Part shown: in pieces, positions 11,461-53,396 of the stretch
Layout: each line of letters begins with the position of its first letter
How positions within the stretch are numbered: position 1 is the first letter of the stretch
NCBI GenBank assembly: GCA_973895155.1
Contig: OZ316892.1
Span: 21,329,619 to 21,393,618, forward strand
DNA length: 64,000 bases
Origin: Marsupella aquatica
Taxonomy: Eukaryota > Plantae > Marchantiophyta
Direction of reading: 5' to 3'
Translations under genes and position numbers: made by a program
The notes under the pieces: generated by a model
What the model saw: the letters and a program-made list of their open reading frames with translations, nothing else
What the model was told of the DNA's origin: nothing
The model's database searches: none

Positions 11461-11694
11461 ATGTCTTCATCCTCTACAACTTCCACCACATCAGATTCCT
11501 CTTCCGATGAAGAAAGTCATCCTCCTCCTCAACCTGAACCAACCGTACGTCAACCTAGTGGTCCACCACGCCAACTTTGTGGTTGTAAAAAATGTGTGGG
11601 GATGGTTGTCCAAAAGTCATATGTATGTGCGGAGCACATTGCTCGATATGGCCAACATCGAGGTCTTACACCGGGAGCTTCTTCATCCCGTATG
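11461..11694 (+). CDS. CACTA transposase exon 1 (transposase-associated Zn domain)
   Basis: CGCKKC...VCAEHIARYG motif; phase-0 donor ATG|GTGAGT at 11695. Confidence 0.75.
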
Positions 11695-11806
11695 GTGAGT
11701 TGTAAACTTACTGTGATTTCCATTTTATTTTGTAAATCTTGCTAGGTAGCATAAAATAAAATTTGGGAGGTTCATCACACTCACTTGGTTCCATTTCTTC
11801 CTATAG

Positions 11807-12622
11807 GTATCCAGTAGGCCTACACCCACTACACCAACACCCTATGTTCCCTCACAAGGAGTTCTAGATGCTATAGGCTCGGCACTTTCACAAGCTTTTC
11901 GTTTAGTGGCAGCAGGGCAAGGTAGTGTTGGGACAATTAAGGGTGACGGTATTGTTACAAGAGGGAAAAAAAAGTCAAAAAGACAGCCTAGAGGGGAAGT
12001 GGATCAGTACACTTGTAGGGTTGATGGTAGATGGGGCCCTTGTACCTTCACAGGGAAGTGTGTTCCTATCATAAAGGATTGGAATCCGGAGTGCCTTGGT
12101 TTGCCATGTGATTTAACCTATGGTGAGGAGATAGAAGTTTGGGGAAGACGTTGGGTTGTCAAGAGTTCAACCCTAGGGGAGAGGCATGGGTATGGGATTT
12201 TCTCTTGTCAAGACATTATTGTGGATGATATGGGTGGAAAAGGGCGCTCTTCAGATGGACCAACGTTGTTCCCGTATGGTGGACCCATTTACAAGAGGAG
12301 ACATTGGAACATGATCCTTGTTCAACACCCTGAGTGGAAGACTTATGCATTGGACATGGATACTTTTGATGGTTGCACCAGAAAGTATTGTGACCAGCGT
12401 ATAATTGATGGTGATCCCATCCGTAGTGGGAATATTGCCGGTTTCATCAACAGTACTGTGGGGACCCGGCCTAAGCATAGGAAAAACTGTGAATGGGTTT
12501 TTGTTGATGGTCCCCCTCCAGCCCCTTATGGGCAGAGATATCATCATGACCATTGTCTAGTTGTAGCTAATAGGACCATTCTGGTTGGAGAGGAGTTGTT
12601 TACACATTATGAATGGGATTAG
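11807..12622 (+). CDS. SET-domain protein exon (putative lysine methyltransferase) within CACTA
   Basis: Acceptor CTATAG at 11806, open frame to stop at 12622. GYGIFSCQDI, YGGPIY, IDGD..GNIAGFINS, NCEW and LVVANRTILVGEELFTHY follow the SET motif order (GxG, RFINHS-like, GEELxxxY). Confidence 0.8.
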   Translation, partial: VSSRPTPTTPTPYVPSQGVLDAIGSALSQAFRLVAAGQGSVGTIKGDGIVTRGKKKSKRQPRGEVDQYTCRVDGRWGPCTFTGKCVPIIKDWNPECLGLPCDLTYGEEIEVWGRRWVVKSSTLGERHGYGIFSCQDIIVDDMGGKGRSSDGPTLFPYGGPIYKRRHWNMILVQHPEWKTYALDMDTFDGCTRKYCDQRIIDGDPIRSGNIAGFINSTVGTRPKHRKNCEWVFVDGPPPAPYGQRYHHDHCLVVANRTILVGEELFTHYEWD

Positions 12623-12772
12623 GATTACTTTAGGGACATGTATTATATGTTCATCGTATGTGAACGTATGTTTTGTAATGACATGTTCTTTTTATATTGT
12701 TAATAATATGTTTCAAGCACTACTATATTTGGCGTTAATTTCATTGTGAATACTTTATTGTATTTTCTATAG

Positions 12773-15700
12773 AATGTGCGGCCTAGTCAAGATATGTTGC
12801 CAAGGAGGTTGAGAGCTACATATCAAGAAATGGGCTTGCCACAAGACGGGGAAACATCATCAGCAGATTCCTCATCAAGTGACAATGATAATGACAGTCC
12901 AGATGAAGGGGCACCTCGGACAGATTATGAGGTCATGCAAGACCAAGAGTCAGCCATGGATGACTTCATGACAGATTGGTTTGGTGTAGACATTGGTGGT
13001 GAAGGAGGTGTCCCACCCAATGAAGGAGACCCTCCACCAAATGTTGCACATGATCCAAGGCCTCAACGTACACCTGAAGGACAAAAACAATGGGAAGAAG
13101 CTGAGGCACATGCTAGAACACCTATTTATGGGGGTGCTCGTTTGAATAGACTATCTGCCATCTTGGCATTGATGAATCTTCAGGCAAAACACAAGGCAAG
13201 CAATGCGCTACTATCGGATTTGTTTGCAATTTGCCATGATCTCTTGTTACCTAGTGAAAATGTGTTGCCAGGAACTTGGAAGGAGGCAAAGAGGGTTCTA
13301 TCATCCATTGGCATGGAATACCATATCATTCATGCTTGTGTGAATGACTGCATTCTCTATCATGAGACCAATGCCAGCGCAACTGAGTGTCCAATTTGTC
13401 AAGAGCCTCGATATGAAACCAACATGTTGACCTCAAAGGTGCCTAGAAAAGCTGTTCGTTGGTTTCCTATTATTCCTCGATTGTTGCACATGTACCGATG
13501 TTCTAACTTGGCAGAATTGATGGTATGGCATAAGACACATCGATCAGAGGCCGGTGTCATGCGGTTGCCAGTTGATTCCCCTGCTCACAAGCATGTGGAG
13601 TCACAATGGCCAAAATTTGCACGTGACCCTCGTCATGTGAGGTTGGGGTTGGCATCAGATGGGGTAAGCCCACACTCCCTTGGAGGGAAAGGGCGCCCTA
13701 CTTCGGTTTGGCCGGTGGTTGTTATGAATTACAACCTTCCCCATGGTTGTCCATGAAAAAGGGATTCTTATTGCTATCATTGATTATCCCAGGTCCATCT
13801 AAGGTAAAAAACATGGACACCTACTTGGCGCTCTTGGTTGGGGAACTCCATAAATTATGGGGGGGTGTATGGGCATATGATGGTCGGACAACTACAGGAG
13901 GGTTACCACGTGTCTTCCAATTGAAGGGAATCATTATGTGGACCATGCATGACTATCCAGGTGAGTGGTATGGATTTGTATTTTTTTCATGTATTGGAGA
14001 TCAAGTTTGTTTGGAAGGAAGTCCCTCTTTAATTCTATGTACATGAACTTTTCAATTCCTTTGACTCTAATTGAGAATGTTATTTTGTGAGCAGGGTTTG
14101 GGTTTGTTTCTGGGTTCCAAACTCAAGGGTACAAGGCATGCTCCACTTGTGGTCCAAGCCTTCACGATATGGCCAAGTACTCAAAATGGCTGCACAAGAT
14201 AATCTACCTTGGTCATACCAAGTTTCTTCCACTTGGGCATCACATGAGGTCTGACCCCCTTTTGTTTTCAGACTTTGACATGATCAATGATGATGAGCGT
14301 GAGATACCTGACCGCACAACATTTTCGTATTGGAAGTCCATAGCTGATAGGGTGGCCGACCCTGAAGATGCCATGGGATTTGATGGTAGTGGATTGACAA
14401 GGTGGGGTATACTGGCCACTTTGCCCTATTGGCCTGAGTTGAAGATTCATCACTTGTTAGACCCCATGCATATAGAGGGAAATGTTGGGAAGGCTTTGAT
14501 CAAGCACTTTTATGGGGAAAAGAACATTAATTTTAGGGAGGCATGCCAGGATCTAGAACGACATCTAGATGTATGGATAACAGTTGATGAATCCACAGGG
14601 ATGGAACATCGTCCTTCAGCTCCATGGGTTTTGAGTGTTGGTGAAAGAAGAGAGTTTCGACAACGCATAGGGCAGATGCGGTTTCCTACAGGCTATGGTG
14701 CCAATCTACGTAAGGCTTTTGGGATGGAGGACAGTCATAAATGGCCAATGTATCTCAAGACACATGACTATCATCATTTACTACAACATATACTTCCTGT
14801 GGCAATCATAGGTTTGGGGAGTGAAGAAGTGCAAGACGCCCTTTGGTCACTGGGCACTTTGTTGAGATGGATATGCTCAAAGGAAATATATGAAGAAGAG
14901 ATACCACGGATGGAGGTATTGGCAGCAGAGGTGGTATGCAAGTTGGAGAAGGCCCTCCCTCCTTCCTTCTTTGATTGTCAGGTGCATCTTCTCGTTCATC
15001 TTACAGTGAGGGAGGTTGCCATTGCCGGTCCGGTGCATTGTAGGTGGATGTATTGGCTGGAAAGGTATATGGCCGTGTTAAAGGCTTATGTACGGAACCG
15101 TGCACGAGTGGAGGGGAGCATGGCAACTGGATACTTGGCAGCTGAGAGTATGTTTTATTGTAGTAACATCTTAGCTACCATTGATCCTAGTTTTCCACGC
15201 ACTTGGATGGAAGAGAGGGAAGTGGAGGAGGACCGTTTAACAGGTGCAAAAAAAACACGCTTACTAACCGCAGTGGAGTTGACACAGGTTAGTACTTTCA
15301 TGTTGAGTAACAGCAATGTGATGGAAGATTGGAGAGAGTTTTATGAGGATGCAAAGAGGGAGAGTCGTCGCCCAAGGATCTTTCCAAAGTTCCTTGAGTA
15401 TATGAAGGAGAAAGTACTTCAGTTGGATGCTATGGTGGCCCAAGGTGAGAATGTATCACATTTTCCAGATATGACTCCTGAGGTTCGAACAATTGTTCAT
15501 GGTCCTTTAAGACTTGTTCAAACCAGAACAGCAATGTGGACACAAGGGAGGCATTTCAGGATTTCTGACCTTGATGAGAAGAGGGGAAGAACTTTTGATT
15601 GTGGAGTTCAAGGGCAGTTCATGCAAGATTCACAAAGTAGCCATCATGACACTAATGTAATCAGAGATGTGGTGCCTCACTATGGGAAGATTGAGGAGAT

Positions 15701-16043
15701 CTTGATCATATCCTATGATGCCGATTCCAAATTTGAAGAGTATGTCTTCAAGTGTAAGTGGTTCAAAATTCACCTGGTTGGTGATAATCGCACGGTACTT
15801 CTTGATGAGTGTGGGTTTACTCGACTGAAGACATCAGCAACTAGCTTTCAACCATCTCATTGGCAAACATCTGAACCATTTACATTCCCAAGTCACCTTG
15901 AGCAGTGTTTCTATATTCCGTACCCACCAGACCTAGAGTGGTCAGTTGTTATACCGTATGTGCCACGGTCCCGTTCCATTATCTCGGAAAAACCTGACGT
16001 TATTATTGTGTCAAATGGAGGCGAGGATGAGGACCAGGTTTGA
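12773..16043 (+). pseudogene. CACTA Tnp2/TnpD transposase (Transposase_21, DUF4218, DUF4216-like)
   Basis: HACVNDCILY, RLGLASDGVSP, YNLPP(W), HDYPG, LDPMHIEGNV, KTHDYH, GPVHCRWMYWLERYM, EPFTFPSHLEQCFY. Frameshift ~13740; intron ~13962-14095. Confidence 0.95.
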
Positions 16044-17408
16044 TGCACTAGTAGTAAAACTTGTTGTGGGCCCAGAATTTGACCCTAAACTAACTATCAT
16101 GGTTTTATTTATATTAACATATTACTTTTCTTCTTTTGTTTTACAAACACTTAATTGGACTTTGAAATTTCATCTCACTGTTATATATGCAACCTTAGCC
16201 GTTTCCAAAGCTATCCTCATGCATGCCACCTTTTCGAAAACCCTAGCTGTAACCTAAACACATGCATTCTCCATCTTGTAAAGAAACTCTCTCAAACATT
16301 TCCATTCTACAAAATTTTCAAACAACTCTCTTTGCAAAACATTTTCAAGCTTGTCAAGAAGCAACTTCTGAACACTTTGTGAATAACACACCATCGGTAA
16401 TTGTGATGCCAATGTGTTCTCAACTTTGCGAATCAACTGGATTCGGTAACTTGCGACTATTTATGCTTCACAATATTGTGCGAAGCTAATAGGTTCACAA
16501 TATATATTTGAGTACATTATTATCGCTAAATTATGAAACAAAAGAGATCCAAATGCAGTCGCGATGGTCGCGGATCCACAAATACTTTGCGAGACGAATA
16601 GTATCTGAAAGAGTTGCGAATTCAATCCGATCTCAAACAAATTGCGAGGTATTTAGCTTCGCAACACCATGTTGCGAACCTGTGAGCATGGTTTATTGTG
16701 ATGCGTGTTTGATCACAAAATATCTGAAGTCGATGACATTGCAAGACCATCCCGGCGTAAAAAAAAAGCTTCGCAAAAGGGGCCAATATGTAGTAGTGCT
16801 TGTGAAGCAGCCAATTCTGACTGTTGCTGAAGTAAGGAGTTTGATTCCGTTGTAGTGTAGTTGACTTAATCTCTATTATCCGTTGAGGTGAACGTTTCAG
16901 CGTCCCTAATTTTGTCGCCTTTTTGGTTTTCAGAACAGAGGAAAGTCGTCCACCTCACTAATTATATTGCGTATGCAATGTTAGCGAGGGTCTAGTACTA
17001 TTCTATACGTATCGGCAATAGTGTTTATTTTGCTAGCGAGGTCTCTGGCGTTAAACCCGTAAAGTAAAGTTTTATGTTTCCCGTAAACGGTTTCTTTTTG
17101 ACCAAGTTCTACATAACGTAGAGTTCAATAACTCATGTACTTTAATTGGTTTTTGGATATACATTCGGAGAAACAAACCATTTTAGTCACGCATAGTTTT
17201 GCTAGCGATGTCGCTAGCAAAACTAGTACTGTAAGTCCAAACATTGCAGTCGGAAATCTTCTCAAGAAGTTATTTCAAAATGAACAAAGATGTTCTCCCT
17301 TACAACTGTGTGTCGATATCACGTTTTCGGATCCCAGATCTACAAAATAGACACAGTCTACAAAATGTCTATGCCCTTACAACATGGACTACCGTTACTG
17401 TTTCCTAT

Positions 17409-17840
17409 TCAAGGGCTCGCTGCCTTGTACGCATCGGAGTCAGAGTCGGAGACTGTATCATAGTCGGAGGAAGCGAGGATGTTTTCCGTGAAATAGTCGT
17501 GGATCTCGAGGTCCCTCCAGTATGACTCCTCCTCTTCTCTCTTCCACTTCGCCGATACCCCCTTACAGACAGGCGCTTTCGAACGAGAAGAAACTTGTGT
17601 GTGGGAGACCGGATTCGTCAATGTCTCCTTACAAGGTGCGGCCGTCTTGTAGTCCTTGGACAGGACGGGAGCCTTGCTACCGGAAGGGGATGTACTCCTC
17701 TTAGGTTCGTCGACAGTACTCTGAGTCTGCTCCGATTATGTGGACCTTGGAGGTGAATCCAGTTGACCGTCAGTTTTGGCGTTATATCGCCGAACTTCCA
17801 GAATCCATTTACGAGAAGATCCACCCTCGTTCCGTGCCAT
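17409..17840 (-). other. Possible small third gene of MULE copy 1 (unknown function, disrupted)
   Basis: ATG at ~17840 just after an acceptor-like TTTCAG; ORF fragments with an acidic tail (YWRDLEIHDYF..SDSDSD); flanked by the element palindromes. No recognisable domain. Confidence 0.3.
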
Positions 17841-19652
17841 TTCTCCCTGAAACGAAAACAAATGCGATAAGTTTACTTGAAATCTTTCGAAAAGTCTTCT
17901 TATGTTGACGAACAAGAAAGCGAATGACAACGAATACCTGATAGAACACCAAACTGCAAGTGGACAACATATGATAGAGAACGGGGATACCTCGATCCGG
18001 ATCCGAGCGGAAAATGTATGCTCCTTGCTTCGACGATAGTAACGACAGTTTCCAGGATGACAGTAGCTTCGCTGACAGTAGCAGAGGTCACAGAAGGGCT
18101 TCGACAATCGGGAACACAACAAGCAAATCGCGCTTCGAGTAAGCGTCGAGCCCAATAAAAGTCTGAAAGAATGGCTGAAAGGAAATGAATGGAAATGTTT
18201 CTTAAGGAGCGAGTAAGATATAGGGGATGGTGGATAGCTGGAGATCCTTCCCAACGGATTGGGATCTTGTCTGTTGGTTGTACTTAGATCTTGTCTGTTG
18301 TGAATTTCACGCTCGGTGTCCGGATGAAGCTTTGGATTCTGTCCTTGGATGCGCTCCCGAGATTGTTTAAGTCAAAAGACATGCTTCCTTGTCCCGTGTC
18401 ATTATGATTTATTCACGTCTTTAACGACTGCACGCCAAAGTTCGTGCGAGAATTATGGGTGTCACGATTGCTAGCGATTTCGCTGGCCTGACGTACGTTC
18501 CATGATGATGGTCACTTATAGGGTCTTTAAGTGGACTGTTGTGCAACGATTACGTGATATGTAAAAATGTGCGAGAATGATGGGCATAGTTATGACTAGC
18601 GACTTCGCTGTCCTGATGTACGGTAGAATTATATGTTGAATTATGGTGCCGTAGACGACCGTTCGTGTCCGGGGAATACGTAATATGTACCAATGCATCG
18701 TCGGGATCGCTTTTTAAACCCAATGGGAGTTAAATAAATAGGTGGAATAGAAGGTTCCTTTTAGGCTAGCGAGTGTCACTTTTTGCTAGCGATGTTGTTT
18801 TCGTGCTAAATTTTGGGTATTCCAAGGAGAAAATGATCCCGTGCGAGGAAATATTTTACTGTTTCCTCACACGCTACAATGACCCCTTTATAAGGAGCAC
18901 TCTTCCTTCATTCTACTTCATTCTTCTCACTTTGTGTCTACGCTCACCTTGTTTTGGTACGTGTCCATTGCAGTAAGTCATCTGGCTTGTTCATGTTCAG
19001 CCTCTGATGTGAAAGCTCATCGCAGTTGTACTCCTTAGAAACATTATAGCATTCCAGTTCCACTTTTACTTTTGGGGGAAACCCCCTCTAAAGTCCCGAC
19101 TGTTATAGACAATCTCGGCCTCTCCCGAAATCTAACAGGAATTCTATATAATGTCGGAGTACTTTCTGACCACTTTTGCGTTTGGTGGAGGCTTCTCTAC
19201 AGCCCTGTTATAGACAATCTCCATCTCTTCCTACTTTTAATTCTTGCGCAGGTTCTGGTCCTACACAACACTACGCCGTCCGTTGGTTTCTTTGATCGTC
19301 ATCGAACTCCCTGTACGTACTTCAAACCCACTTGAAACCCTACGTCCCTCTTACTTCTAGCTTTGTGTATTATCAATCAATCGAATCAGTATTCCTCCTG
19401 CCAGTGTAGTGAGATGTACGTAGTTTCATGGATTTAATATAGATCGATCAAATATGCGGTCTGAACTTCTCAACAGGTTTTTGGCTCCATAAGGAGATAT
19501 CTTTGGTCAAGAAATTTCATCGCAGAAACTACGTACATGTCCTTTTAGTAAGGAGATCGGGAGGTATCAACTACTAATATGGTGACTGTTTTCTTGCGTC
19601 AAACTTCCACGTACTTCGAAGACCAGTTCATTTTGTGGACCCTCAAGACATC

Positions 19653-30987: not shown

Positions 30988-32458
30988 AAAAGACTTGGTC
31001 AGGAACATATAGTTGTACACTTCTATCTTGAGCAGCTGCTATATATTTGCTGAACAAATATATGTTGGACCATTAATTTGTAGTTTGATTTGGCCTACAA
31101 ATCATTTCTTAGTAGCAACCAGGGTAGCAAGCTCTTTACGCAGTTAAATGTGGATTTGCATGGGCCAGTTGGTAATGAGCACGGAACTACTACAATGCAA
31201 GCTCTGCGGTTGGGAGTATAAATATTCTGGTGGAAATACAATCTTGCAACTTTAGGATTGCAAGAGAGTTTGCTGGTTACTCAACCATAAGTAGACTTCA
31301 TCTTGTACAACGTGTGAGTACAAATAAACATTGAAATTGTTTTAATTTTACAAAATATATGTATTACAATGTGCAGTGCAACAACACTCCCAATTTAGAT
31401 CCGCAAAAGTTTTTATAAATTGCTATGTAGACCTTCTATCGGCATATGACCCAGTAACCAGTTCTCTGCTTCTTCTATAGGGGTATTTACATAAGACAGG
31501 AAACAGGAAAACAGGAAACCCAAAAGAGGAACCGATGACAGGAAACAGGAAACCGAATATAGAAAACTTCAGCGAAGAATTACGGAAATTTTTCTGGTGT
31601 GAACAAAGAACTTGACATTCAAAACAGGACGTTTAGAAGATTCGAGTTGAATGCACAAAAAATGGTTAAGAATAGCGCCAGGCGCTCGTTTAATAAGCTT
31701 ATGGGAACTGTACATTGAAAACCATTTTGACTGCTATCCGTTAGCAAATAGCAAATCCGTCCCGAAGAACAAAAACTCGTGTACAAGAAGATATCAAAGA
31801 ACGTTGGGCGTCTCGGTCGGGCAAGTGAGCACACTAGCGCCTGGCGCTAGTTCTCTCGGTTGTGGAAGAACTGTTGTCGTCCTCGATGCCAGCCATAGAT
31901 GTGGCTGTGTTGGGAGTAAAACCATTCTCACGAGGAGATTCTCCTTGGATTATCCATGGCAGGTCAGCGTAAGAGCTCGAACACAATCAAAAGTGGAAAG
32001 CACTGTAAGACGATAATGGCGGATCACCTTGAGAACTGATGCAATACTGGGCATTCAGGACTTAATCGCTCAAAGTTTATAGGGATTAGGGTGTAATATC
32101 ATGGCTCCCTGAACCGCCCGCTCCATCTGGAAATGGTGGTTGCATCCTCAAACTCCCGTTATGGTCTAAAACGAAAACGGCCGTCTCAACATCAAACGGG
32201 CGTTTTCACCTCACATGACCATCGCGACAGACCAGACAAAGATTCACGGGAAAATTTGACTGACGTCATCCAGAAAGTATGGGAGTACCAATGTACCAAC
32301 ATCATGACCGTTATACAATTATAGTAGTGTCGGGCGCTACTATAACAGAAAGTGTACTTCGAGCGGACACTCCATGGTTGCAACTGACATATAATATCTT
32401 TTATTGTACAATATTTCTTGCATACATTTGGGTAGCGCCCGACACTAGCATAGTTCCA

Positions 32459-35400
32459 CTAAAAAATACCTAAAAAATCTGAGCACTCCGATTCACTTGA
32501 TTCGGACCTGTCGGTAGATTCTGCCTCGATGTCTAAAAATTCGCTCTTGGCCATATCATCCACAAATTGGTTCCGCATAAATTTTCTATCAGACCCCCTC
32601 CTTAATCTCAAGCCTTTATTCTCCCAGTGCAGGGTCCGCACACTGTCAACTCTTCTAGCAACATTTTCAGCATAGGAAGGTAAGACAAATGGTTTCTCGG
32701 GAGTTTCAATATATCGCCTAGCTACTTTCCGTCTGAGTTGGAAACGTCGGCGTAGATTCCAGTCTGACCTGAGGAGGAGAATATTGGATTTTATGTCAAC
32801 GGTCGAAATATTTGCAAAAAAGGAAATAAAAAATGTGACATCAAAGAAAGAAGAAGGGAATCGACCGTAATAAAAAACTGGGTTAGCTTATGAGCTTACT
32901 CGGTAGTTTCTTACTCAGAAGAGTCTCCGCTATCACTCCCTCCATTAGATTCCAAATCTTCTCCGGTTAAAGACACTCTGGGAGGTGGCCCATTGGAGGT
33001 GGTCTGCTGGCTATTCTTGATGCATCGACAGGACCGGAGCCTATTCACACTGCTAGGATCTTTTGTGTATATCAGACTCTCTGGATGATTTGGCTGGGAA
33101 GAAATGAACATATGTTCTCTGACAAGGTGGGACGTTCATTTGACTTGGGCCTGATGCTTGCTGAGACTGCCAATCACATCCATGCGGTTGGGGCTGGTTT
33201 ACGCTTTGGGCGGCGTCGCTCTCGGTTGAACCGGGCTCAGGAATGGTTGCGGGGAACGAGGCAAATCTGGCTGAGACGGGGTGGGGACAGGATTCTCTTG
33301 GTGCCCTCTAGCGGCGGCGGTGCTGATTGAGGGGTCTGCTTTTTGGGGGGCTGCTGTGGGAAGGGCATGGGTGCTCTCTTGATCGGTGTTATTTCCCTTC
33401 TTTGAGGGGGGGCTCTCCCTGGGGCTTTGATGCTCTCTTTTGTGCTTTTGGGCTCTCTTTGTGGCTCGCTAGTGTGTTGTTGCTGTCCCTGTATTAAGGG
33501 CTGTTGTTCCCCCTATCCGTGGGGTCTTTCACGGTATTAAAATTTATTAAAAAAACCATTCCAAGGAAAGACACTCTGGGAATGTTGGGATCCTCCTCTT
33601 CTTCTTCCCCCTCTTCTGCTTCATTCTCATCTTCGGAGTCAAAATTTAATACTGATTTAAGTTTGTCTCTCTTTTGTTTTGCAAGCACAGGCTTCGGAGG
33701 GGCTTTGGACTCAGATACTTTGGGAGTTAGAAGGTCAAGAAATATTTTTGAAGCGGATTCAACGAACTCCTTCCTATTCTTGAGCCCAATTACAAATCGA
33801 CCACAATTGTCACCTGCCACAAATGTACTCCCAGAACCTACAGCCTAATCCAGAACAATATCTCCAGGACACGTGATTAGTTCGAAAATAGACTGCATAA
33901 ACCCTGGATGTAGTCTGGCATTCCCGACAAATTCAAGCTCTGGAGTTGTATCCACCTTCGCAAACGGAAGTCCGATCAGATTTGTGATAAAGGGATCCTC
34001 TGTTCTTGAAAGAGGTTTGAACTTAGGATCCTTTGGGACTTTCACCTTGGATGATACCCGACAAAATATATCCAAACGTAAAGTGAATACCTGAAAAGGG
34101 AACATGAACTGTAAGTAAGGACCTAAGAATTGTCATAGCGCCGGGCGCTAGCAAAGAATTAAGAGCATGATTAGTAGTGTACCTAGGAAAAGATTAAAAT
34201 TTCTAATCAAGCACCAGATAAAATGAGCAGCGCCTAGCGCTAGCAAAACTTTGAAATTGTGATGAATAGATTTACCTGCAAATCAGACTTGGCCTTGTAC
34301 ATGGGGAACCCCATGACAACATTATGTGTACACAAACATTGGAATTTCTTAGACTCTTGACATGCTGAGATGACCTGTGAAATCTGATTATACTCCCCCG
34401 TATGGAGTATCGCAATAATTCCGTCATCCAACAAAAAGGGATCCATTGCCCGGAAAAAACATCGGGCTAGCGTACAGTCGGGAACGTTCCATTTAGGGAC
34501 CTTCCTATCAAGCAAAGTTGGTTTTAGCCCAGTTGGCAAATAAATAAAACCAGCGTCAACACCAAAAGGCCTTTCTTTCCCACCCCTCACCACCCCTTTC
34601 AGTTGGCATCCCGATTTGATTAAGTCCTTCCCCAACTTTTTGGCATCATTAACCCATTCTGGCTTTTCCTCCTTGTTAAACATACTATCCACTAATTCAC
34701 TGACACTGGTCTCAACGAAACAATGACGAGATGCCTTGGATTTAAAATTCCCAACATCACGTTGGAGCCTGGTGGCCGCCAGAGAATCCCTTTCTGATTG
34801 CCCAGCATCGCGAGTCCTCCTGCTTTTCTTCTTTGTACTCGTTGCATCAACTAGTACAACTGATTTTCCAGAATTAACTGGTGTAAGTGAATCTGGCAAA
34901 GTGCTAGTATTTGCTTCTAAAGCTTTCGGGGTAACCTTTGTATCATCAGTGGCGTCTGCATCTGACTTCTTTTGACCTATTCACACAATGCAGAGAATGT
35001 GGTAGTGTCAGAAAGAAAAAAATGGATTAAGGTTGAAGTACAGGAATAGTATTGCCAAGCGCTAGCAAAGAACTAAACTGGGTTTGAATGAAAACATACG
35101 TTTCTTTCCGGATCGCGTTGATGCACTTGGCAGTGCTGTGTCTACTTTCACTTTCCCTCTCGGCTTGCGGCTCCTGTCTACATGGACAACTACTGTCTCG
35201 CAGATTGTTTGTAACTCAGAAGATGATTTGTCAACGTCGCTCAGGAGCCCTAGCTTGCTTCATCTCAAAAACTATGTTGGGTAGAATCTGCAACTTGGCT
35301 AGTTTAAGAAACCAATCCTTCTCTACTTTGTCAAATGGTGAATCCCACTTGTCTGTGTCAAGATACCACAGGCAATGAATTCTTTCCCACTCAGACATTT

Positions 35401-37396
35401 CCCGTGGTGGAAGTTTACCCTCGGCAGGATACATCAAATAAAAGTCAGCAACATGATCTCCCTCCAAGTTTGCAACAATCCACTTGTGAAATGCAGCTGG
35501 ATACGCCCAAAGTGCATTCGGGGAATGTACTTCCATCCATATGTAAAAACAATACAAATACCTCTTGGCCCTCTTCTGATTTTTCTCTGTATATACCTCT
35601 TTATTAGTGTATTTTGATGGCCACATGGTGTTGAAGAACTTTGCCTTCACAAGATCCCCATACCTTCTGAACTCACTTGAAATAATTTCAATCAGACCCT
35701 CTACTGAGTCACACCTTGAATGGGCAAGCCTATCAACTGGGAGTGTTTCAATGGCTGCGGAAATTGCAGACTGCAACATCCCAATTGTGATTCCCTCGAC
35801 GGTATTCTAGGTCTGCCATGTGTGACACCACTGCTCAGTGGATCATCATTCACACTGGCAGGGTGGAAGAATTGTTTTCTCAACTCTGGAGTACAGTGAG
35901 CAACAAGCAAAGTGCATCTCACTTTTGGATCGAGAGCAGAAATTGCTGTGAATAGTCTAGCACGGTCCATAGTACAAACAACCGAATCGGGTTTTTTCTC
36001 TCGGTTGTTCAAGATTCTCCGTCAATACGTACATCTCTGCACAAGTACCTAGAAAATCTTCAAACTCAGGACTAAGAAGAGGAGTGATTTTGGATGTTTT
36101 CGTAGACCAGTCTTTGGTGGCCTCTTTCAACATGAGTGATTGCTGCTTTGCAACCTCATCAGCCGACCAAGGATTGCCTTGACTTGCTGCCAATGCTATG
36201 TCCATCTTGAACTGGTTAGTGTAAGCTTTGATTTTGTTTTTGCATAAAATATAAACAAGAGCTTCCAGAGGCATTTTTTGTGTGTACCAAGAATGTTTTC
36301 AAGTCTTCTATTTTATATACTCAAACTTAGCATAATTGGCGCTGTCAATTATTGACTTATAGTACTCTAGATTGTGAGAGAGAATCCTTCAGATTCTGTC
36401 TGCGTCAAGGATCCACGACGGTTCAACAACGGCCTGCCCTAACCTACAATAGGCCATGTTTGAAATTAGTAGCGCCAGGCGCTAGCATAAAAACAAACAC
36501 TCTCTTTAGTATTTATTTAACAACAACGGATTGTGGAAATGTTTAATTACAAGTTTGGGCCGAATTACTTACTGGTTGACTGTGTGCATAGCCGCCTCAA
36601 TCTGAATTTGCAAAGCTTTATCACCCTTGAAAATGCTGCAGAGAACTTTGGGATGATACTTGGCATTGTCTGGATTTTCCTTCAATGTGAACATAGTCCA
36701 CGAGTAAAGTCGGTGATTCCCGTCAAAGACTGAGAACATTTTGTCTTTCAAGATCGTAAAAGCTGGATCTGCCGCGCATTCTAACTCAAATTTCTCGTTC
36801 TCAGCAACCCAAATAGCATCCCAAGTCTCCCTGATCGCCTCAGTGCATATTTGCTCCACACCATCGGAATCGGTCGGTTGCACAAAAAACCGCATTCCAA
36901 TCCTTGGATTGTAGCCACTACTTCGGAACAAGTCTTTCAATTTCTCAATTGACGCACTCTCCTTCTGAAGCGTCTGCACTGCCTCCATGAGGATCAACCG
37001 ACAAAGCGGAATCCTAGGCGGTTTCTTCTTGTTTCCACGGAAATCTTTTCCAAATGACATTATGTGTCGCGAGATGACTTCATCCATCCCTAATCCAACC
37101 TCGTTGCCCTCTCCCAGCGCGTAATTGGTCATGCTATCCGTGTCCATTTGGACCCTTCTGGACTTCTGGAGTGGTAGTGTTGCGTTGAAGGAAGTGATTG
37201 CTCCGCTCGACCTTGTAACTCGACGCAAGTAAAATGCCCTAGAGAACAAAGATTGTGTAGACTCGCAATGACCCTGATCTCCCTCTAGAACTGTGGTATA
37301 CCCTCTTGGAGAGCTTGGGGCGCTTGAAGGTTGCATTGTGGAGCATGTCAATACGTGAAGGTCTTTGTACGACACAGAGCCAGTCTCTATCCTCAC
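32459..37396 (-). pseudogene. ParB/Srx-like + N6/N4 DNA methyltransferase-like fusion gene (copy 2)
   Basis: ParB-like FSVFDGNHRLYSW exon ends at 36573 (same phase-2 intron as copy 1). Middle exon homologous to copy 1. VDAGFIYLPTG..W..FFRAMDPFLLDDGIIAIL (motif IV-VI region) precedes LHPGFMQSIFELITCPGDIVLD*AVGSGSTFVAGDNCGRFVIGLKNRKEF (motif X-I-II), i.e. beta-class order. Several stops and frameshifts; 3' exons uncertain. Confidence 0.8.
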
Positions 37397-38233
37397 GCTC
37401 CGAACAAATTACTGTACACAAAGAACAACATAAAACCTTTAAAACTTTTCCATCATAGTGCAGTTGACATCATGTGACGGAGAACGAGAAGGATTGAAAG
37501 AATCTCATTGACCAATCCAAACAAAGACAGGTGGCAGGGACTATTTGAAATGAGTAGAATTCACGTCTATTTTCAAGTCATTTGTGGATGCAATGATGAA
37601 CGGGAGTGTATTGTTAAACAATCCAACGAAAAACAACACAAAGTAAGGAATTCATTCATACATGTTACCGTTAGAGGTAACCGTTGGGCAAACCAAAGTC
37701 ATCTCCATCGATACTAGCGCCCAACGCTAGTATCAAAAACCATTAAAAATACTCTCATACATGACAATGACATGAAGGAGATTATGTTAGCGCTGGGCGC
37801 TAGCTATGTATACCCCTTGTATTTTCCCAAGAAGTAACGATTCCAAAACAAAATGAAACGTTGAAATTGATTTTTTCAGCAATTCCATCAAAATCAATAA
37901 AATATTTCGCTCTGACTTGACAGTCCGCTAATGATAGCGCCTGGCGCTAGCACATTCAGTCTGGTTTCTAAGTTGAAACCCGAGTACTTCTTTATGGTAG
38001 CGTCGGGCGTTAATAATTATATGATCGCATTTTTTACACGTTACCGGTAAGTAGTGTCGTTGGCAAAACGACAAACTACATTTATGTGTCTGCATCTAAC
38101 GACTAGTACCCGTTTTGTCGTTTACAAATGATAATCTTCTGAGGTTTGGAATGAGTTTACTTAACTTAAGTCGAGTAATGTTCTCCTATTTTCTCAGTTC
38201 CTTTGTTTATCAAATTAACATCATTCTCCCGCA

Positions 38234-41200
38234 ATGTCTAATTCAGTCGTGCTTCTTCGTCCTGATACTGGGGAGATTGTAAGCATCCCTGTAGGTTCAT
38301 CCAACACGTACAAATAGGTTAGTGAGAACTATCTTTGTGGAAGATTTGACATTGCCATCAACGACATCCATTCCATCAAACCTGACCATGCATCTGGAGA
38401 GGAGACAGATGACGCACTGTTTGATATCGATGATGGAGTCAGATTTTGGCACCTCAATGCTGGAAAGAGATACATTATCAATATCCGACAACATTCCGTT
38501 ATGAATGAAATACATCCAGTTCCATTCATTGACCTTTTCGAGAGTGATGAGGAGGAGGTCGCCGTAGATTTGCAGACATCGGCCAATCCAGGGCCTTCTA
38601 TCAAGATAGAAGGTCACTCTCCTTCCAAGACAAACGTTTTGGGGGGTGTTGTGTACTATCAAAGCGCGATGGATGCCATTCTCAAATCAACTGGCCATAG
38701 TGAACTGTCGCGGTTCATCCGAACAAGCGATTTCAGGCATGAGCAGGTGAATTGTCTACCAAGTAAATACAATGGAAATGTTGTGTTTGAATTGCCTCCC
38801 ACAGAAGGTCTGCTATCAAAAGGTTCGAGGCTCCGTGCATGGACTGGCCTAAAGACTGCTACTTCTGGACACGGATATTTCCAACTTCTGCAAATGTCCA
38901 ACCTAAAAAGTTTTGGGAATTTGGTAAAGTGACGTGTACCGGTGCACTCAAATGTCAAAATCAGAAATGTGATTATCTGTTGCGGAAGAAAAGAAGAAAT
39001 TCAAAACCTTGGGATGGGACACCCAAACTTGCAGGGCCACATACCGTGGGAAAGATTATTGAGGAGGTTGGGGTAGTTTGTCACTACTGCCAACAATTGC
39101 CCTTTTGTACTGAAGCTTGTTCAGCAATGCTTTTTTATATGTACCCGCAATTACTTCTCGACGCGGATACATGTAAACATATGTCGCGGACCTTGTTGTG
39201 CATGTCGGAACTCATGCGCATCCCAGTCGTAAAGTTTTTTCTCGAGGTGCGGAAAAGATTGCTCATGAGTTCATAAAGAAGCAACATGAAGCTACACCAT
39301 GTGCCACACCATCGGGTATGAAGAATGCCATAATTGGATCTTTAAGGAAGGCTCTCTGTGTGTCCAACAATGACATCGGAGAATCGGAGGAAAGAGAAAT
39401 TTGGGAGTTGTTAATGGTTGTTTCGACCCCTCAAAAGTTTGCATCTCTTTTTCGGAGTGTTCAGCAAGACCAAAAAGGTAAAGGTGAGTTAGAGTTTCTT
39501 GTGGAAATGCAGAAATGCATAAACTTTCCCTTTCTACAACGTTACATGCTCCCAAGTCAAGGCTGTAAGGAGGAGAGGCCATATATTTTCAAAATGACGG
39601 TAAAAGGGCACGGATCTGGAGTTGATTTATTGCGCCAAATGCAACCTGGAGGTCGACTAGAAGGCGCGTGGGTTAGTTTTGATGGGATGAGGAGAATGAC
39701 CAAGGATTGGGTAACTTTTAGCACTCACATTTATGATCACAATTACCGTGCTCTTTGCACAATCTTCACATGTGAGTTGAAAGCTAAAGATTCTAAGTCG
39801 TTAGAAAAAGCCTGGAAATTGATGATTGAGGTTTGCCATGAAAATGGGTTAGACAACGTAGTAATCCATGGATTCATGGCTGACAATGCTCAAGCTGGAT
39901 GGAATGTTGTTCGGAACATGTTTTTTGGTGGACATCCTAACCCGGAAAAGGAGCGATCGGATGCATTTCACTTCTATCAATTGTTTCATCGTCATTCAAT
40001 TGAAGGAGTATTGGAAGAAAAACAAGAAGAGCACCAGAAGATGTGGGACTCTTTAAGGAATGCGTCAACATTTCTTGGAGCCTACAGAATTTCTAGGGAA
40101 ATCGATGTGTGGTGGAGATCAGGGAATTGTGTTCCAGGAAAGCTTCGGATGCTCCAAGGTTGGCTTGCGTGGTGGGTGGTCTGATGGCGTCAATGGGGAA
40201 ATTTTATTCGTTTGGTGAGTTTCAACATCCATAAACAAGTAAACACTCAAAATCAACATTTTAAAAGAAGGAATCAAACAAAGTCATACTAGCGCTTGGC
40301 GCTATCATTATTTCCAGTGACTTTTGTGTCCTAGTTCCACTCCAATATTTGCCTGAGTTTTGATACTAGCGCCCGACGCTAGTTTTATTAACCACTTGTT
40401 ACTCGTATTTATCCATATTCTAGTGTGAATGGTGGTAGCGCCAGGCGCTGGCATTGATTAAACCCGAAAACCTAACAAAATGATTTGGTTCAAATGTTTC
40501 TTTATTGAATGCAGTGACTAAGTCATATTTCCTAAACTGTGCTCCAAATGTTTTATGCAGAACAAAAGCATAGAGGAAAGCGCTATGATTCCTAACTGTA
40601 CTACTTCAGAGGCGGCACATTCCATAATGAAGGCTTGGCAAACTAAGAAAAAGGCTGGTCTATTTGAAGCATGTGAGATGGATCAAAATAGGGCTATTTC
40701 ACAAGTTGCTGCGTATACGGCGTATAAGAGAGGTCTTAACCGAGGAACCGGACCTACAATTTGGGAATTGGCATTCCGTTCGGCAGACCAGGCAGGTTCT
40801 TCAAAACTTTTCCAAGATGCTTCCAATATGCTTCTTTCCGGTGCGGCTGAATTTGACCTGGAAAGGAGTGGCCCTCTCAATGGGGATGTTACCACAAAGT
40901 CTATGAAGAGGAAAGGTCAAGCCTCTGGGAACATCTCAGCACAAGACTCCCATCGGCATGACACTATTCTTGTAACATCACCAAATACTCGAGGCATGAA
41001 AAGGAAAAACTTAAACAAGACTGAATTCTCCCCCGTTGCATCGGGTCCTGTTCACCATGACATTGGCGTTGTGGACCTGTCAGAAAGTGAAATTGAAGAA
41101 GGCAGTCATTGGAGTACTCCGCCCCGGAGGAGGTCAACAAGGTCGTCTGCAGCCCTGCAAAGTGCACCTCTCAACCTCCAAAAGGTTGTCCATGACTCAG

Positions 41201-42078
41201 CTATGTTGGAGACAGATGTGCGACCAGGGGCGTGGCACCTACAAAGAGTGACGAGACATGGTGCAGGGCCTCAGTGTAATGGATCTCTTGGTGGAAAATC
41301 GGATCGAGATGACTATCGCAATCATCTTAAAAAGGTTGGTTACTCGTCAACGGATGGTGTAGTTGGCATTGTTGTCAAAGGATATCACGTGTTCAGGGGA
41401 GAACCACACCCTGAGATGATTTGGTTTTGTCCCAATAGTGCATGCTATAAGAGCCGGCCCCGTCGTAATGTGGTGAATCTTCCCCCATTTCCTCATAGCC
41501 TGCCCATTTTGAAAGGAACTAATCTTTCCAAGGCTGAGGTCCAATTCCTGACTCAGCAAGGGATTGCTATCAAGCCAGAGGCCGGACGTTAGGCTGCTCC
41601 ATCTCCTTTTGACTTGTGAATCAATGTGAACCTTTTCCCCGAGAAAACCAATCTCCTTGAGCCAAATATCCGCCTTCGGAGCAGGAATGGTAAAAATACA
41701 ATCCCATGTTCAAATCTTTTGCAAGGGCACAACAAAAGAATTGAATCCGCAAACAAGGAGTTGATGACCCTCGTTCAACAATTTGATGTTTCTGTCGGGA
41801 ACTCTTGGGGCAAACAATTTCAGATCCAAACCCAAGAGAGACTTCGCACGGCAAACACTTATTGGGTACAGATTTTCATTTTCCCATGTTGTTCTTGTGA
41901 GGACTTCTATCATCGCCATTCTCATGGTAGGCCCTTCATGCCGTGCAAGCATCTCTATTGGGTGTATACCAACGTCCTACAACTAGATGTGGTGGATTCA
42001 ACTTTGGCTAGTCAGCCAATTCTGACTGTAGGTGAGGTGAGGCTCATTCTAGCTAGGCAGAATTCTCTGGACTTATAG
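38234..42078 (+). pseudogene. MULE transposase (GCM-like, DDE, SWIM), copy 2
   Basis: Colinear with copy 1: YNGNVVFELPP, CTGALKCQNQKC..CHYC, HVGTHAHP, SFDGMRR, FMADNAQ, DAFHF, SEAAH, CSCEDF..CKHLYW. Intron ~40215-40560; multiple frameshifts and stops. Confidence 0.88.
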
Positions 42079-44394
42079 ACTAGACATTTAGTAACGTTCA
42101 ACGGCTCCAAACTAATTTGTCGCATTGGAACTTTTCACATATTTTCAATGATACCAAATCAGATAGTCATTTTGAATACACATTTTGTTATAACATATGG
42201 CTAGCGTCGGGCGCTAGCTTCAGTTTGTCCCTTTTTGGTGAATCTTGTTTGGTTATGGTCCGAATGCTTTCCAGTACTTATCTTTGCGATCGGAATCAAT
42301 CTCCGTTTGTGAACTTTCCTATATTTGAGTTCTTCTCGTGGGATATAAATCTTCCCCTTCCAGGTCACACTTCATTGAAGTGTACTTAATTATTTATTTA
42401 TGAACACCATTCAATCCATTTGGTCTCATCTCAAACCCCTTGGTTTTTTTGTTAGCGCCTAGCGCTATTACATAGTACCTTACCAATTCCGATGATATTT
42501 TTAAGACTGGTATTTTTTGAGTGTGCCTTGCCTCAGTAGCCTGTGTATGGTGGGACCCACTCTATGGTTTACGCATATATGGTGGAGAAGTAATTCAGTT
42601 ACAGAGACAGCATGTGAATTTGTTGTTGCAAGGAACCCGATCAAGTCTTACCTTTCCATCAAAAATGGGCCAAAAACTTCATATATTTACTGGTAACAGT
42701 TCCTGTTTTCCTGTTAACAGGAATCCTGTTTTCCTATTTCCTGTCTCGGTGGTGATGCCCCTTCTATAAGCCTAAAAGACTTGTGTTTATTGTCACTAAA
42801 ACCTGAGACTTTGTGCTCTGCTTCTTCCCAACATTCATAGATACCAGGATTCCCCGGCAAGATTCCGGCCTTTCCCCACTGCATACCACCGTTTCCTACT
42901 ATGCAAGGAGGGATGATTGCATCTAAAATATAACATCAAAGCTTGGATCAATCTGATGTTGGCCATGCCCTAAAACTTGAGCTGCCTGCCCATGCTCATA
43001 TAGTAGATGTTGCTCTCTCACTGTCGGTTGTTGAGCTGGAATTTGAGCTCGCTGGCTATGGTGCTCATATACAGGATGCATCCATTGCTGCTCTCCATGC
43101 TCATCTTTTGGATTCTTAGCAGGATGAGGGCTCCCTGGGCCCTTAGCGTTACTAATGCAGGGAGGCCGTGCGAACAACGCAAGGGTATTTTTAATGTAAT
43201 GCAAACTAATTTTTATAATATTTTTTAAAGTAGGCAACATCCATGTATATACATTCATCACAATATTAGTAATAAGGCTCTTATCAAATACATGTCACAT
43301 TAATCTTATGCAAGGGTACCTAAAATGTCAAGGACACGTGTCACTATATGGTTGGCACACATGTCATCACTTCATTGGCACACATGTCCATATAGTAAAT
43401 CAGACATTTAATTATTTATCCTCTTAAGGCAAGTTTGGTTTCATGGGTTTGCATGGTAGACTTGTTTACCCGCATGTGTTAAGTTGGGAGTTAAGTAAAT
43501 GTTGGGCCAGGATTTTGGGGCCCAACTCGTTTGGGGTTCTGGGATTGATGGGGACCCATGAATCAATCCCACATAGACAAACAAGATTACTTTTGAATTC
43601 CCTTGAATCAAATGGCCAGGTATGAGGCCAGGTGTGTTTGTGTGTGGGGTGTACTCCCTTGATCATTGGGTTGGGGGGGGGGTACTCGGTGCTCACAATT
43701 GTTTGATTGCAGAGATGGCAGGAAAATTACCCACCATGTCTAAGTAACAATTTCAGCCAAAGGAGATTTGATGGTATTACTCTCCACAATTTTCAGTAGT
43801 CATTTTTTGTATTATTAGTACTTTGTGTCTAGAATATGTATGATTAATGTGTGGTTTGATGTGTCAGGTTGCATGAAAGAAGTTGCCAAAAACTCTACTT
43901 ATCATTTGGTGTTAATGGTTGATGTCATACCATTCTTAGTCAAGATAGAATAATTTAGCAATTGGAGTTTACATAAGTAGTATATATGCAATTATTCCTC
44001 CAAGGATATAGCATAGCATAATAATGCATTTGTACTAGTTTAGTTTATCTCTATGAGGTCTACAAGTTGCCTGAGTTATAGTCATATACTCTAGAAAGAA
44101 CTATAAATCTTTAGTACTAGTTTTGTTATGATCTATATAAAATATGTACCGTGAACATCAGCGTAACATAATATTCCCCTATGCAAAATAGAATATTTTA
44201 TGTTTCAGTATGATATTACAATTTTTAAAAATTCAAGGTTTTTTTTAATTCCTTGAAAAACTCTGTTATAATTTACAAAAGGATAAATTTGTATAGGAAA
44301 AAATAATGTTTTTACATTAACAAGGGATTTTTTTTTGTGAACAAAAATATTAAGAAGGGGTACACGGGGGGTGTCTGTTCTCAGGGGGGTTCAC

Positions 44395-49509: not shown

Positions 49510-50450
49510 TACTACCACATCAAATACGGATACCAATCCTATTGTTGATGCCACTCAGCCCTGAGGTACTCAGGCATGTACATTAAGTCATCAAGGTCTA
49601 AACCCTGCTCATGCCATGGTGGTCTTTGATCCGTGCCTACAAGCAGTGGCAGCAATGCCCTCCACGGTGCACATGTTGCTACCAAGTCCCTCCACTGGGT
49701 ACTAATTAGTCTATATTTGCAGATATCTTGTGCGCCAGACACCACAAGAACCCTCGGCTAGACATGTGTAAGAACTATATCATCTGCCAAATCAGGCAAC
49801 AAGGAACCACCTACAGCATCGTGCTTGTCTAACTCATCTACTGAAAAGTAAATGTCCTCTTCAGACTGTGCATCCTCATTCACCATGGCATTCACAACAC
49901 ATCCAAGGTCTGCAGGCATTATCTTGGTTGGAGCTACAATCTGTCTGGTTACCAATCCACACATGTAAGCCCAAGCAGTAGCCATGCACGATGCAACCCG
50001 TAGGAGGGAGGTGTTTACAAAAGACAGCAAACAGGAAACAAGATTTAATAACAGAAACTGGTAACAGGAAAAAAACTGGTAACAGGAAAAAAACTGGTAA
50101 CAGGAAAATGGGTGGAATTTTTTTTTGAATTTTTTTTTGAGAAAAAAAAAGTTTTTTTGGTCGACCAGTTTTTTTTGCTAGCGCCCGGCGTTGCTAATAG
50201 TAGCGCCCAAAGCTAGCCAAAAATGTTGCATTGTTAATTTGTTTTGGAAATAATATGTTTTAGGAGACATTTTTAAATTGTCATTTTTCCTGGTAATAGT
50301 GATTTTTTCCTGGTAACAGCATATTAAAAATAGGAAAAAAAATTCCTGTTTACCTGTTTCCTGTCTCCGTCGTTATACCCGTAGGAGGACCCTACATAGG
50401 GCCTGTTGGTTTGGAAGAGGCAGCATACCCACCAAAGTCTTCAGCCAAAC
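49510..50450 (-). pseudogene. F-box-like gene fragment interrupted by MULE-derived MITE
   Basis: LLPDLADDIVLTHV*PRV..DICKYRLISTQWRDLV F-box motif; frame CRVLL|RVASC restored across the TSD. Confidence 0.65.
50008..50380. mobile_element. 373-bp non-autonomous derivative (MITE) of the ParB-MTase MULE family
   Basis: Ends GAGGTGTTTACAAAAGACAGCAAACAGG and (rc) GGGTATAACGACGGAGACAGGAAACAGG match copy-2 termini; 8-bp TSD GTAGGAGG; retains two TAGCGCC..-type palindromes at 50177-50217. Confidence 0.9.
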
Positions 50451-53323: not shown

Positions 53324-53396
53324 ATGTTCGAGTTTCTTGATCGCGATCCAGACTACCTCGGGGACGCGGATTACCTGTAATAAGTTGGACTTCGGG

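Follow-up and report, generated by a model that had tools for sequence, protein, structure and literature searches.

We analysed a 64-kb stretch of the genome of the liverwort Marsupella aquatica (contig OZ316892.1 of assembly GCA_973895155.1, positions 21,329,619 to 21,393,618; hereafter the window), which carries a Mutator-like transposon with two divergent genes, one for a transposase and one for an accessory protein, here called the helper, in which a ParB-like domain is predicted to be joined to a methyltransferase-like domain. The non-coding parts of this transposon are dotted with copies of a short palindrome, and a second, diverged member of the family in the same window carries a different palindrome of its own. 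These family-specific palindromes had been overlooked in the first-pass annotation of the window, which was made from the sequence alone. Tentatively, and giving it somewhat less than an even chance, we propose by analogy that the helper could be a self-targeting ParB clamp that assists this family of land-plant transposons against silencing.

The member at 31480..42760 (copy 1, about 11 kb) is a real transposon of a multi-copy family, as established by comparison of its flanks and ends and by contigs from sequencing runs. It is flanked by CTTCTATA on the left (31472..31479) and on the right (42761..42768), and bounded by imperfect terminal inverted repeats (TIRs) at 31480..31570 on the plus strand, beginning with GGGG, and at 42670..42760 on the minus strand. 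Units of ACAGGAAA sit in these ends, and the two 90-bp ends aligned with a score of 80 against a best score of 61 among 500 shuffles. Contigs from two of the four sequencing runs join 31471 to 42761 (the shorter side measures 242 letters in one contig), and therefore the site also exists without the element. The TIRs and target-site duplication (TSD) claimed in the first-pass annotation were thereby confirmed. As to the claimed 8 bp, the duplication held but its length is either 8 or 7 bp, because one C can be assigned to either side: the ends read GGGG...CCC with 8 bp or GGGG...CCCC with 7 bp (TTCTATA on the left), the empty site fits both, and the sequence cannot tell. The right end of copy 2 is likewise CCCC. 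A TSD of 8-11 bp has been given for Mutator elements and Mutator-like elements (MULEs) (PMC6446971).

All 30 bins of copy 1 were covered in all four runs by many diverged contig pieces (284-3720 per run), which shows a repeat family; no copy number can be derived from this coverage. Among the best-supported variants listed, other copies differ at the stops 33845-33847 and 35231-35233 and carry insertions or deletions at 36011, 38837 and 39189-39190, the places where copy 1 changes frame, so the stops and frame breaks of copy 1 are specific to this copy. Copy 2 (1..18886) represents a diverged subfamily and has its left end outside the window; its helper gene (1-~2820, minus strand) has SLPT at the place of motif IV (see below), and its transposase gene (3410-7155 and 16799-16856, plus strand) is split by a nested CACTA transposon (7156-16798), which accounts for about 9.6 kb of the span. 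At 50020..50372 lies a fragment of a third family member, with ACAGGAAA units, two sites resembling the copy 1 palindrome (50179 and 50201) and a repeat similar to the right end of copy 1. This fragment adjoins a CACTA-type region. Copy 2 also contains about 1.3 kb more than copy 1 on the 3' side of the transposase gene (16860-18886), including a 211-codon minus-strand open reading frame (ORF; 17739-18371) with no Pfam match.

The helper gene of copy 1 lies on the minus strand, divergent from the transposase gene, and is interrupted by three GT-AG introns (36572-36444, 35099-34977 and 34275-34091). Exon 1 (36573..37230, start codon uncertain) encodes the putative ParB/Srx-fold domain (~36573-37087) with its DGNHR motif at 36710-36724; exon 2 (35100..36443), with stops and frameshifts in copy 1, encodes a helical middle region of unknown family; exon 3 (34276..34976) encodes a linker and the N-terminal methyltransferase-like half, with YLPT (34531-34542) at the place of motif IV; and exon 4 (33560..34090, 3' end uncertain) encodes motifs X-I-II, the half expected to bind S-adenosylmethionine (SAM). 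Exon 4 contains the copy-specific stop at 33845-33847, where other copies carry a different letter at 33846. A possible last exon (32462..32887, minus strand) gave a weak pairwise match (E 0.008) to the C-terminus of the Riccia protein P0029. Introns 1 and 2 have the same position and phase in the helpers of copies 1 and 2. The divergent spliced gene described earlier was thus found as such; the claim that the second copy has the same architecture holds for intron 1, to which intron 2 can be added, and the helper of copy 2 reaches only the place of motif IV before the window begins, its SAM-binding half lying outside.

Searching 1.84 billion proteins with a profile of exon 1 built from two sequences gave 274 matches at E<=0.001. 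In the best 150 of these 274, the long homologues that were looked up (n=18) comprised 13 from Riccia sorocarpa and 5 Adiantum gene models, and the named homologues of both helper and transposase are plant proteins. A word-index search for longer exon 1 homologues returned none of 114 candidates, and a metagenome scan with exon 1 none of 72. The Riccia protein P0164 (R1sor_027256, 1207 amino acids) matches the window colinearly over exon 2 (E 2e-11 and 2e-7), exon 3 (1e-4) and exon 4 (1e-15), contains the exon 1 domain at 33-35% identity to the window exons, and has about 550 amino acids of family-specific sequence between the ParB and methyltransferase-like domains. This independent gene model supports the predicted fusion of the two domains. 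Among the Adiantum gene models, P0134 (1176 amino acids) places an FCP1/NIF phosphatase domain (Pfam E 2e-12) in one protein with the ParB-like domain and the remains of a methyltransferase-like part, a combination that may be either a fusion or a gene-model error.

We considered whether the second gene could be neutral cargo captured in the manner of a Pack-MULE, or unrelated fragments misread as a gene. The stops and frameshifts of copy 1 would suit such an origin. However, the intron positions and phases common to two diverged copies, the colinear Riccia gene model and the recurrence of the divergent layout at distant loci (see below) all speak against it, as does the pattern of substitutions. 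Between copies 1 and 2, the ratio of non-synonymous to synonymous differences (pN/pS) was 0.37 for the ParB exon (168 codons), 0.45 for the middle region (297 codons) and 0.59 for the start of the methyltransferase-like part (42 codons), with pS near saturation. Among the other copies, 30 of the 40 variants listed for 34380-34640 in exon 3 were synonymous compared with 29% expected (P 3e-9; a further 10 were left out, and the variants are not independent events), including all four listed within DAGFIYLPT. This bias implies that YLPT is maintained in the copy 1 subfamily and is not a product of decay. The idea of neutral cargo is therefore highly improbable and largely refuted. Instead, these patterns support the helper gene as a family trait under purifying selection: the pN/pS values between the two copies (0.37-0.59), the synonymous bias and the relatives in Riccia and Adiantum all agree with the first-pass annotation, which had preferred a family trait to a one-off capture.

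The N-terminal domain is supported as a ParB/Srx nucleotide-binding fold by structure prediction. Folding of exon 1 from two sequences gave a predicted local distance difference test (pLDDT) score of 43. In an AlphaFold2 model of 1026 amino acids of P0164, computed from a 78-row alignment, the pLDDT of the ParB domain is mostly >90. When this model was compared with known structures by VIA-align, it matched Caulobacter ParB with Z 9.1 and a root-mean-square deviation of 2.2 Å over 97 residues, and the first 14 rows were all ParB, Noc, KorB or PadC chains, with sulfiredoxin ranking next. A Foldseek-free search ranked KorB first (Z 7.8), then PadC and plasmid ParB. These matches bear out the ParB/Srx domain that had been proposed from DGNHR. 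Over 64 alignment rows, R38 is kept in 55, G122 in 60, N123 in 63, H124 in 60, R125 in 53 and N169 in 60, so the GxxR motif occurs in company with R and N residues that flank it; VR, DGNHR and the terminal N, all conserved, presumably correspond to the CTP-site residues of ParB. The middle region was modelled as helical, with no clear match to a helix-turn-helix (HTH) domain from the 1026-residue model. Direct sequence searches failed: just three of 64 rows matched PHROG ParB-like profiles, at E 0.017-0.032, DGQHR reached E 0.032, and tblastn against phages with the ParB domain returned only chance matches. The closest neighbours of the domain in the Atlas were DUF3723 of Ascomycota (31-47% of members, 0.95-0.96) and an unnamed cluster of Cnidaria (0.96), and ParB_N came only after these eukaryotic clusters (0.92, on 32% of members). 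DUF3723 has been linked to Starship elements; our literature search found no paper connecting DUF3723 with ParB. The direct capture of a prokaryotic fusion, as suggested in the first-pass annotation, gained no support from these results, given that the nearest ParB look-alikes are eukaryotic clusters and that a long family-specific stretch separates the two domains.

The methyltransferase-like domain is more ambiguous. Exon 4, read with X at the stop, exceeds the Pfam cut-off for PF01555 (N6_N4_Mtase; 31.5 bits vs 26.7, E 2.2e-7) and matches the DpnA-type methylase 5hek (E 3.1e-6) and CcrM (8.8e-4) in the PDB; at E<=10 it also hits phage methylases, with 920 records matched and a best value of 7e-7; the match to the N4CMT structure 8s9m is weak (E 0.24). 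The SAM-binding half of the Riccia proteins nearly passes PF01555 (E 5e-5 to 9e-6). All these matches cover motifs X-I-II only, at the C-terminal end. A SAM-binding half of the beta-class amino-methyltransferase type is thereby supported. The N-terminal half scored neither with Pfam nor with PDB sequences nor with a three-phage profile, hhalign aligned only its C-terminal 60 columns, and in the 1026-residue model the methyltransferase part has a pLDDT mostly <50 and no methyltransferase match in PDB or viral libraries. Atlas rows for exon 3 are mostly amino-methyltransferase families (0.82-0.86), which we take as a lead only. Canonical motif IV is SPPY or DPPY according to the part of the report available (PMC8885841). 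At the corresponding place, assigned by eye and by order, copy 1 and the homologue P0011 have YLPT, copy 2 has SLPT, the Riccia proteins have DLPT, DMPS or DMPT, the ferns DVPF or DFPI, and distant decayed loci DVPK, NVPS, NIHR or EVLR. A catalytic (D/N/S)PP(Y/F/W) motif N-terminal to motif I is absent from this place. Since motif IV is non-canonical, we call the domain methyltransferase-like and do not count it among the beta-class amino-methyltransferases. The first-pass annotation had recognised the beta-class layout, of which the SAM-binding motifs X-I-II stand; it had overlooked the deviant motif IV.

Despite this motif, the helper could be an active amino-methyltransferase, directed by its ParB domain to the palindromes and writing N4-methylcytosine (4mC) or N6-methyladenine (6mA) on its own element, for example to block host 5-methylcytosine (5mC). 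An epigenetic accessory role was the earlier reading, and a self-targeting enzyme is also what has been proposed for the algal proteins discussed below. Several observations agree with an active enzyme: the SAM-binding half passes PF01555, exon 3 is under purifying selection, the palindromes are CG-rich, and in Riccia motif IV still has its D and motif II its E. At 33780, a loose contig end (2 contigs, 11 letters) shows an acidic motif-II residue in another copy where the window has K, and a phage-type variant, DIPY, occurs in the GMA4 methylase, which is active by annotation only. Against these stand the lack of the aromatic fourth residue in 10 of 11 motif variants, the first motif-IV position, which is Y in copy 1 and P0011 and S in copy 2, and the failure of the N-terminal half to score with any methyltransferase profile. 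Methylation activity is doubtful because YLPT, SLPT or DLPT, not DPPY or SPPY, occupies the place of motif IV, which also makes the earlier methyl-writing role doubtful, and we consider an active methylase rather unlikely.

Palindrome A, TAGCGCCNGGCGCTA, occurs with <=2 mismatches in 16 copies between 31673 and 42467 of copy 1, in introns, in the intergenic region and in terminal non-coding DNA (starting at 31673, 31835, 32325, 32433, 34136, 34228, 36470, 37715, 37788, 37935, 37998, 40290, 40367, 40436, 42202 and 42453). These 16 sites all lie outside the modelled exons, the pattern had no match in any of 20 shuffles, and the only other match in the 64 kb, making 17, lies at 50179 beside the third, end-like fragment. 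Palindrome B, CTAGCGANNTCGCTAG, occurs under the same threshold in 8 copies between 1950 and 18611 (starting at 1950, 3117, 3211, 5509, 17033, 17202, 18471 and 18596), all 8 within copy 2 but outside its coding sequence, and the nested CACTA transposon has none. A and B have zero cross-matches at <=3 mismatches. With 31% and 33% of the sequence non-coding, the probability that every site would miss the exons by chance is 6e-9 for A and 1.5e-4 for B under our exon model. Both are CG-rich and 15-16 bp long, a length resembling that of parS, and their perfect two-fold symmetry suits a dimer of the ParB type. Among the mismatches of palindrome A, 14 of 17 are C>T or G>A, as expected from decay of 5mC.

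The transposase gene lies on the plus strand. Exon 1 (38231..40215, with frameshifts near 38837 and 39189) encodes a Cys/His cluster, the catalytic residues D (39681) and D (39882) and a DxxH motif (H at 39969), and exon 2 (40561..42078) the catalytic E (40609) and a SWIM-like CxC...CxH motif (41890); besides the two frameshifts, stops disrupt the gene in copy 1. The copy 1 protein has a DDE core with (C/D)xxH after the second D, a signature of Mutator/MULE transposases, and we take the arrangement of DDE and SWIM to be the Mutator/IS256 layout. The transposase exon of copy 2, used as query, found 10 homologues among 7242 candidates, two of them from Riccia sorocarpa, and their alignment (A3) conserves the Cys/His cluster, W-x-x-x-D, F-x-A-D, D/C-x-F-H and E. 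Pfam MULE matched neither these 10 homologues nor the ORFs of the window, NCBIfam IS256 matched one of three transposases scanned at E 0.009, far under the cut-off, and the SWIM-like motif remained below the Pfam cut-off (E 0.066-0.17). Judged by these motifs, the transposase is Mutator-like and belongs to a Mutator-like lineage that Pfam fails to recognise. The DDE/SWIM transposase of the first-pass annotation is thus located residue by residue; its GCM-like zinc finger found no Pfam or PDB sequence match as a GCM-like or WRKY-GCM1-type finger, which leaves a conserved Cys/His cluster. The pN/pS between the transposases of copies 1 and 2 was 0.36 over 482 codons, with pS near saturation. A Pfam match of a transposase ORF to ToxA_barrel (E 0.0013, below cut-off) was dismissed as a chance match.

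This Cys/His cluster raises an alternative explanation for the palindromes, namely that they are sites for the N-terminal zinc domain of the transposase, used in synapsis or self-activation, and that the helper acts otherwise, for example by sequence-independent DNA binding or by opening chromatin. The cluster is conserved, the subfamilies have diverged alike in transposase (59% identity) and helper (55-61%, best blocks), and transposases can be sequence-specific activators of cognate copies, according to the part of a preprint available (bioRxiv 2026.08.24.746577). Yet the ACAGGAAA end units, common to copy 1 and the third fragment, make a better transposase site, the palindromes are mostly intronic or intergenic and up to ~5 kb from either end, and their two-fold symmetry is perfect. 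We regard this alternative as unlikely.

To see how the two genes are linked elsewhere, we used a scan with the transposase alignment, which identified 57 loci (58 of 241 stretches were confirmed) in 31 clusters; the count is based on the 13 clusters whose sequence reaches 4.5 kb or further upstream of the matched transposase. A ParB-like exon lies upstream on the opposite strand in 4 of the 13 (L020, L045, L053 and L056), although in L045 the distance is 8.7 kb and the exon may be part of a different element. In L020 and L053 a methyltransferase-like exon follows further along the strand of the ParB exon; the one in L053 was found by eye and then added to the profile. L025 has a methyltransferase-like exon only, and L038 has one in the other orientation. 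The methyltransferase-like exons at L038:1082-1351 and L045:17639-17860 run opposite to the family layout and may be parts of neighbouring elements, which might have other transposases. In Riccia, the locus tags of helpers and of the two transposase models are non-adjacent, the closest pair being 25 tags apart. Because the distant linked transposases are only 24-30% identical to that of copy 2, the pairing of helper and transposase is old but not obligatory. The co-occurrence expected from the first-pass annotation therefore holds for some distant elements and fails in 7 of the 13 clusters, where no helper gene was detected.

These seven clusters also bear on whether the helper could be a structural transposition factor, which would condense the 11-19 kb element by ParB-like spreading and bridging, join its ends or aid its inheritance, with no epigenetic role and with the methyltransferase fold as a dimerisation or DNA-binding scaffold. 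The ParB fold with its conserved nucleotide-site residues, the even spread of sites along the element and the degenerate motif IV are compatible with such a factor. However, the seven relatives lack a detectable helper, and in algal elements ParB domains come paired with domains that modify DNA or chromatin, an argument for an epigenetic role; we consider a purely structural factor quite improbable.

In the clamp model that we tentatively favour, the helper protein would load at the palindromes of its own element, spread along the element and prevent its silencing. By analogy with ParB/parS and VANC, a dimer may grip a palindrome through the helical middle region, close on CTP and slide. The methyltransferase-like part might mainly grip or shield CG/CHG cytosines instead of methylating them, a suggestion prompted by the fact that motif IV has lost its base-stacking aromatic residue in almost every member and that Y stands in place of D/N/S in the copy 1 subfamily. 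A more elaborate version, possible but on balance somewhat unlikely, is a nuclear parS/ParB system in which a CTP-gated clamp loads at subfamily-specific palindromes with which it co-evolves, slides over the element and brings along a repurposed methyltransferase fold that either shields cytosines or writes 4mC/6mA by means of a non-canonical active site.

Several observations weigh against the clamp model. By sequence alone, the domain has no significant ParB match in Pfam or PDB profile searches, so that the ParB assignment of the first-pass annotation stands by structure and not by sequence profile, and the first ten Foldseek rows, all ParB or Noc, have a best E of 0.088. The chance probabilities given above for the location of the sites were calculated for palindrome patterns chosen from the data and for exon bounds of our own model. 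The distant helper-bearing loci L020, L045, L053 and L056 contain no recurrent palindrome (<=2 copies of any), their copies being decayed, and the seven clusters without a detected helper count here as well. The first position of motif IV is still D or N in most of the distant members, and the fourth is aromatic in one fern model (DVPF), so the domain may be active. Furthermore, the transposase has a Cys/His domain too, and activation of cognate copies can be achieved by a Mutator transposase on its own, as stated in the available part of the preprint mentioned above (bioRxiv 2026.08.24.746577).

The first-pass annotation knew of no description of this architecture, but a comparable gene has been published. 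In the available part of the report, the Ectocarpus element Sola1-1_Ec32 has an accessory gene of ~1100 amino acids with ParB-like and N4C/N6A methyltransferase domains (PMC12477816). As here, the fusion gene lies inside the element on the strand opposite to the transposase, and the algal protein is proposed to bind and modify its own element. The algal element differs in its host, a brown alga, its Sola-1 superfamily, its 4-bp TSD and its length of 21.5 kb; neither motif IV nor dispersed palindromes are mentioned in the part available, and we liken the two by description, not by sequence. Likewise, Plavaka elements of the red alga Bostrychia encode PAG2 and PAG3, with homologues in Mutator elements of Chondrus (bioRxiv 10.1101/2025.02.11.637652). 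Like the present element, these carry a ParB-like domain on a transposon, inverted repeats close by that are proposed to be its sites, and a PF01555 methylase on the same element. They differ in having two separate fusion genes, one of ParB with a 2-oxoglutarate (2OG) oxygenase and one of the methylase with a SET domain, and a transposase of EnSpm type; the repeats form tandem inverted-repeat arrays beside the ParB-like PAG3, in contrast to the single palindromes found here through all non-coding parts. The architecture is therefore a known class of transposon accessory gene, proposed from domain predictions and nearby repeats. Distinct here are the host group, the Mutator-like transposase lineage, the maintained non-canonical motif IV and the subfamily-specific palindromes in all non-coding parts.

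An anti-silencing parallel is offered by the Arabidopsis VANDAL elements, also of Mutator type, whose accessory protein VANC21 binds a short motif that is specific to the family and sits in introns as well as in intergenic and terminal non-coding stretches, according to the part of the study available (PMC5735166). The VANC motifs described there are non-palindromes of 8-9 bp in tandem repeats, unlike the 15-16-bp palindromes here, and the helper has bacterial-type protein folds and no Pfam match to VANC. With the bacterial CTP clamps ParB, Noc and KorB (PDB 7bm8, 6sdk and 8qa8) it shares the N-terminal fold, the GxxR-type motif and palindromes of parS-like length; it differs in a long insertion in the domain, an identity of 10-12%, the lack of a matched HTH and of a visible ParA partner, and its fusion with a long stretch of helices and with a methyltransferase fold. 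MpDN4MT1 of Marchantia and N4CMT of bdelloid rotifers are also bacterial-type beta-class amino-methyltransferases in eukaryotes (bioRxiv 2021.02.12.428880, PMC8885841). As far as the available parts of these reports go, these two are host genes with intact SPPY, demonstrated activity and no ParB domain, in contrast to the transposon-borne helper with its non-canonical motif IV. The available part of Iyer 2016 (PMC4738411) describes ParB-type HTH domains fused to chlorophyte Dam-like enzymes, and the helper gene was not met there. A literature search, which covered few subscription papers, found no report of a ParB-methyltransferase gene in land-plant transposons.

The present family brings liverworts, ferns and a Mutator-like transposase lineage into this class of accessory genes. 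Two adjacent subfamilies that differ in both palindrome and protein version allow a direct test of cognate vs non-cognate binding, and the locus is also a caution that the methyltransferase half is possibly no ordinary enzyme. Should a CTP clamp prove to act on plant chromatin, it would explain how one protein can act sequence-specifically over a whole element. It would also constitute a second, independently built anti-silencing system of the VANC kind and a candidate sequence-targeted epigenetic tool.

Other features surround the two copies. Between copies 2 and 1, host genes at 19578-28530 encode a kelch-repeat protein, a glyoxal oxidase in an intronless 573-codon ORF and KN-type homeobox exons. 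The CACTA transposon nested in copy 2 lies in the SWIM exon, is flanked by a 3-bp duplication (CTT) and contains Transposase_21, DUF4218 and DUF4216 ORFs; it also carries a SET-domain ORF above the Pfam cut-off (11807-12619), a second divergent ORF (8651-9751) and subterminal repeats of the TTCGCAAA type. A second, more decayed CACTA transposase region lies at 46238-48436 on the minus strand (Transposase_21, E 1e-54). Finally, a recent tandem duplication (50848-54512 and 56793-60509), ~98% identical and with ~6 kb spacing, includes an ORF with a BRCT domain (50690-51316).

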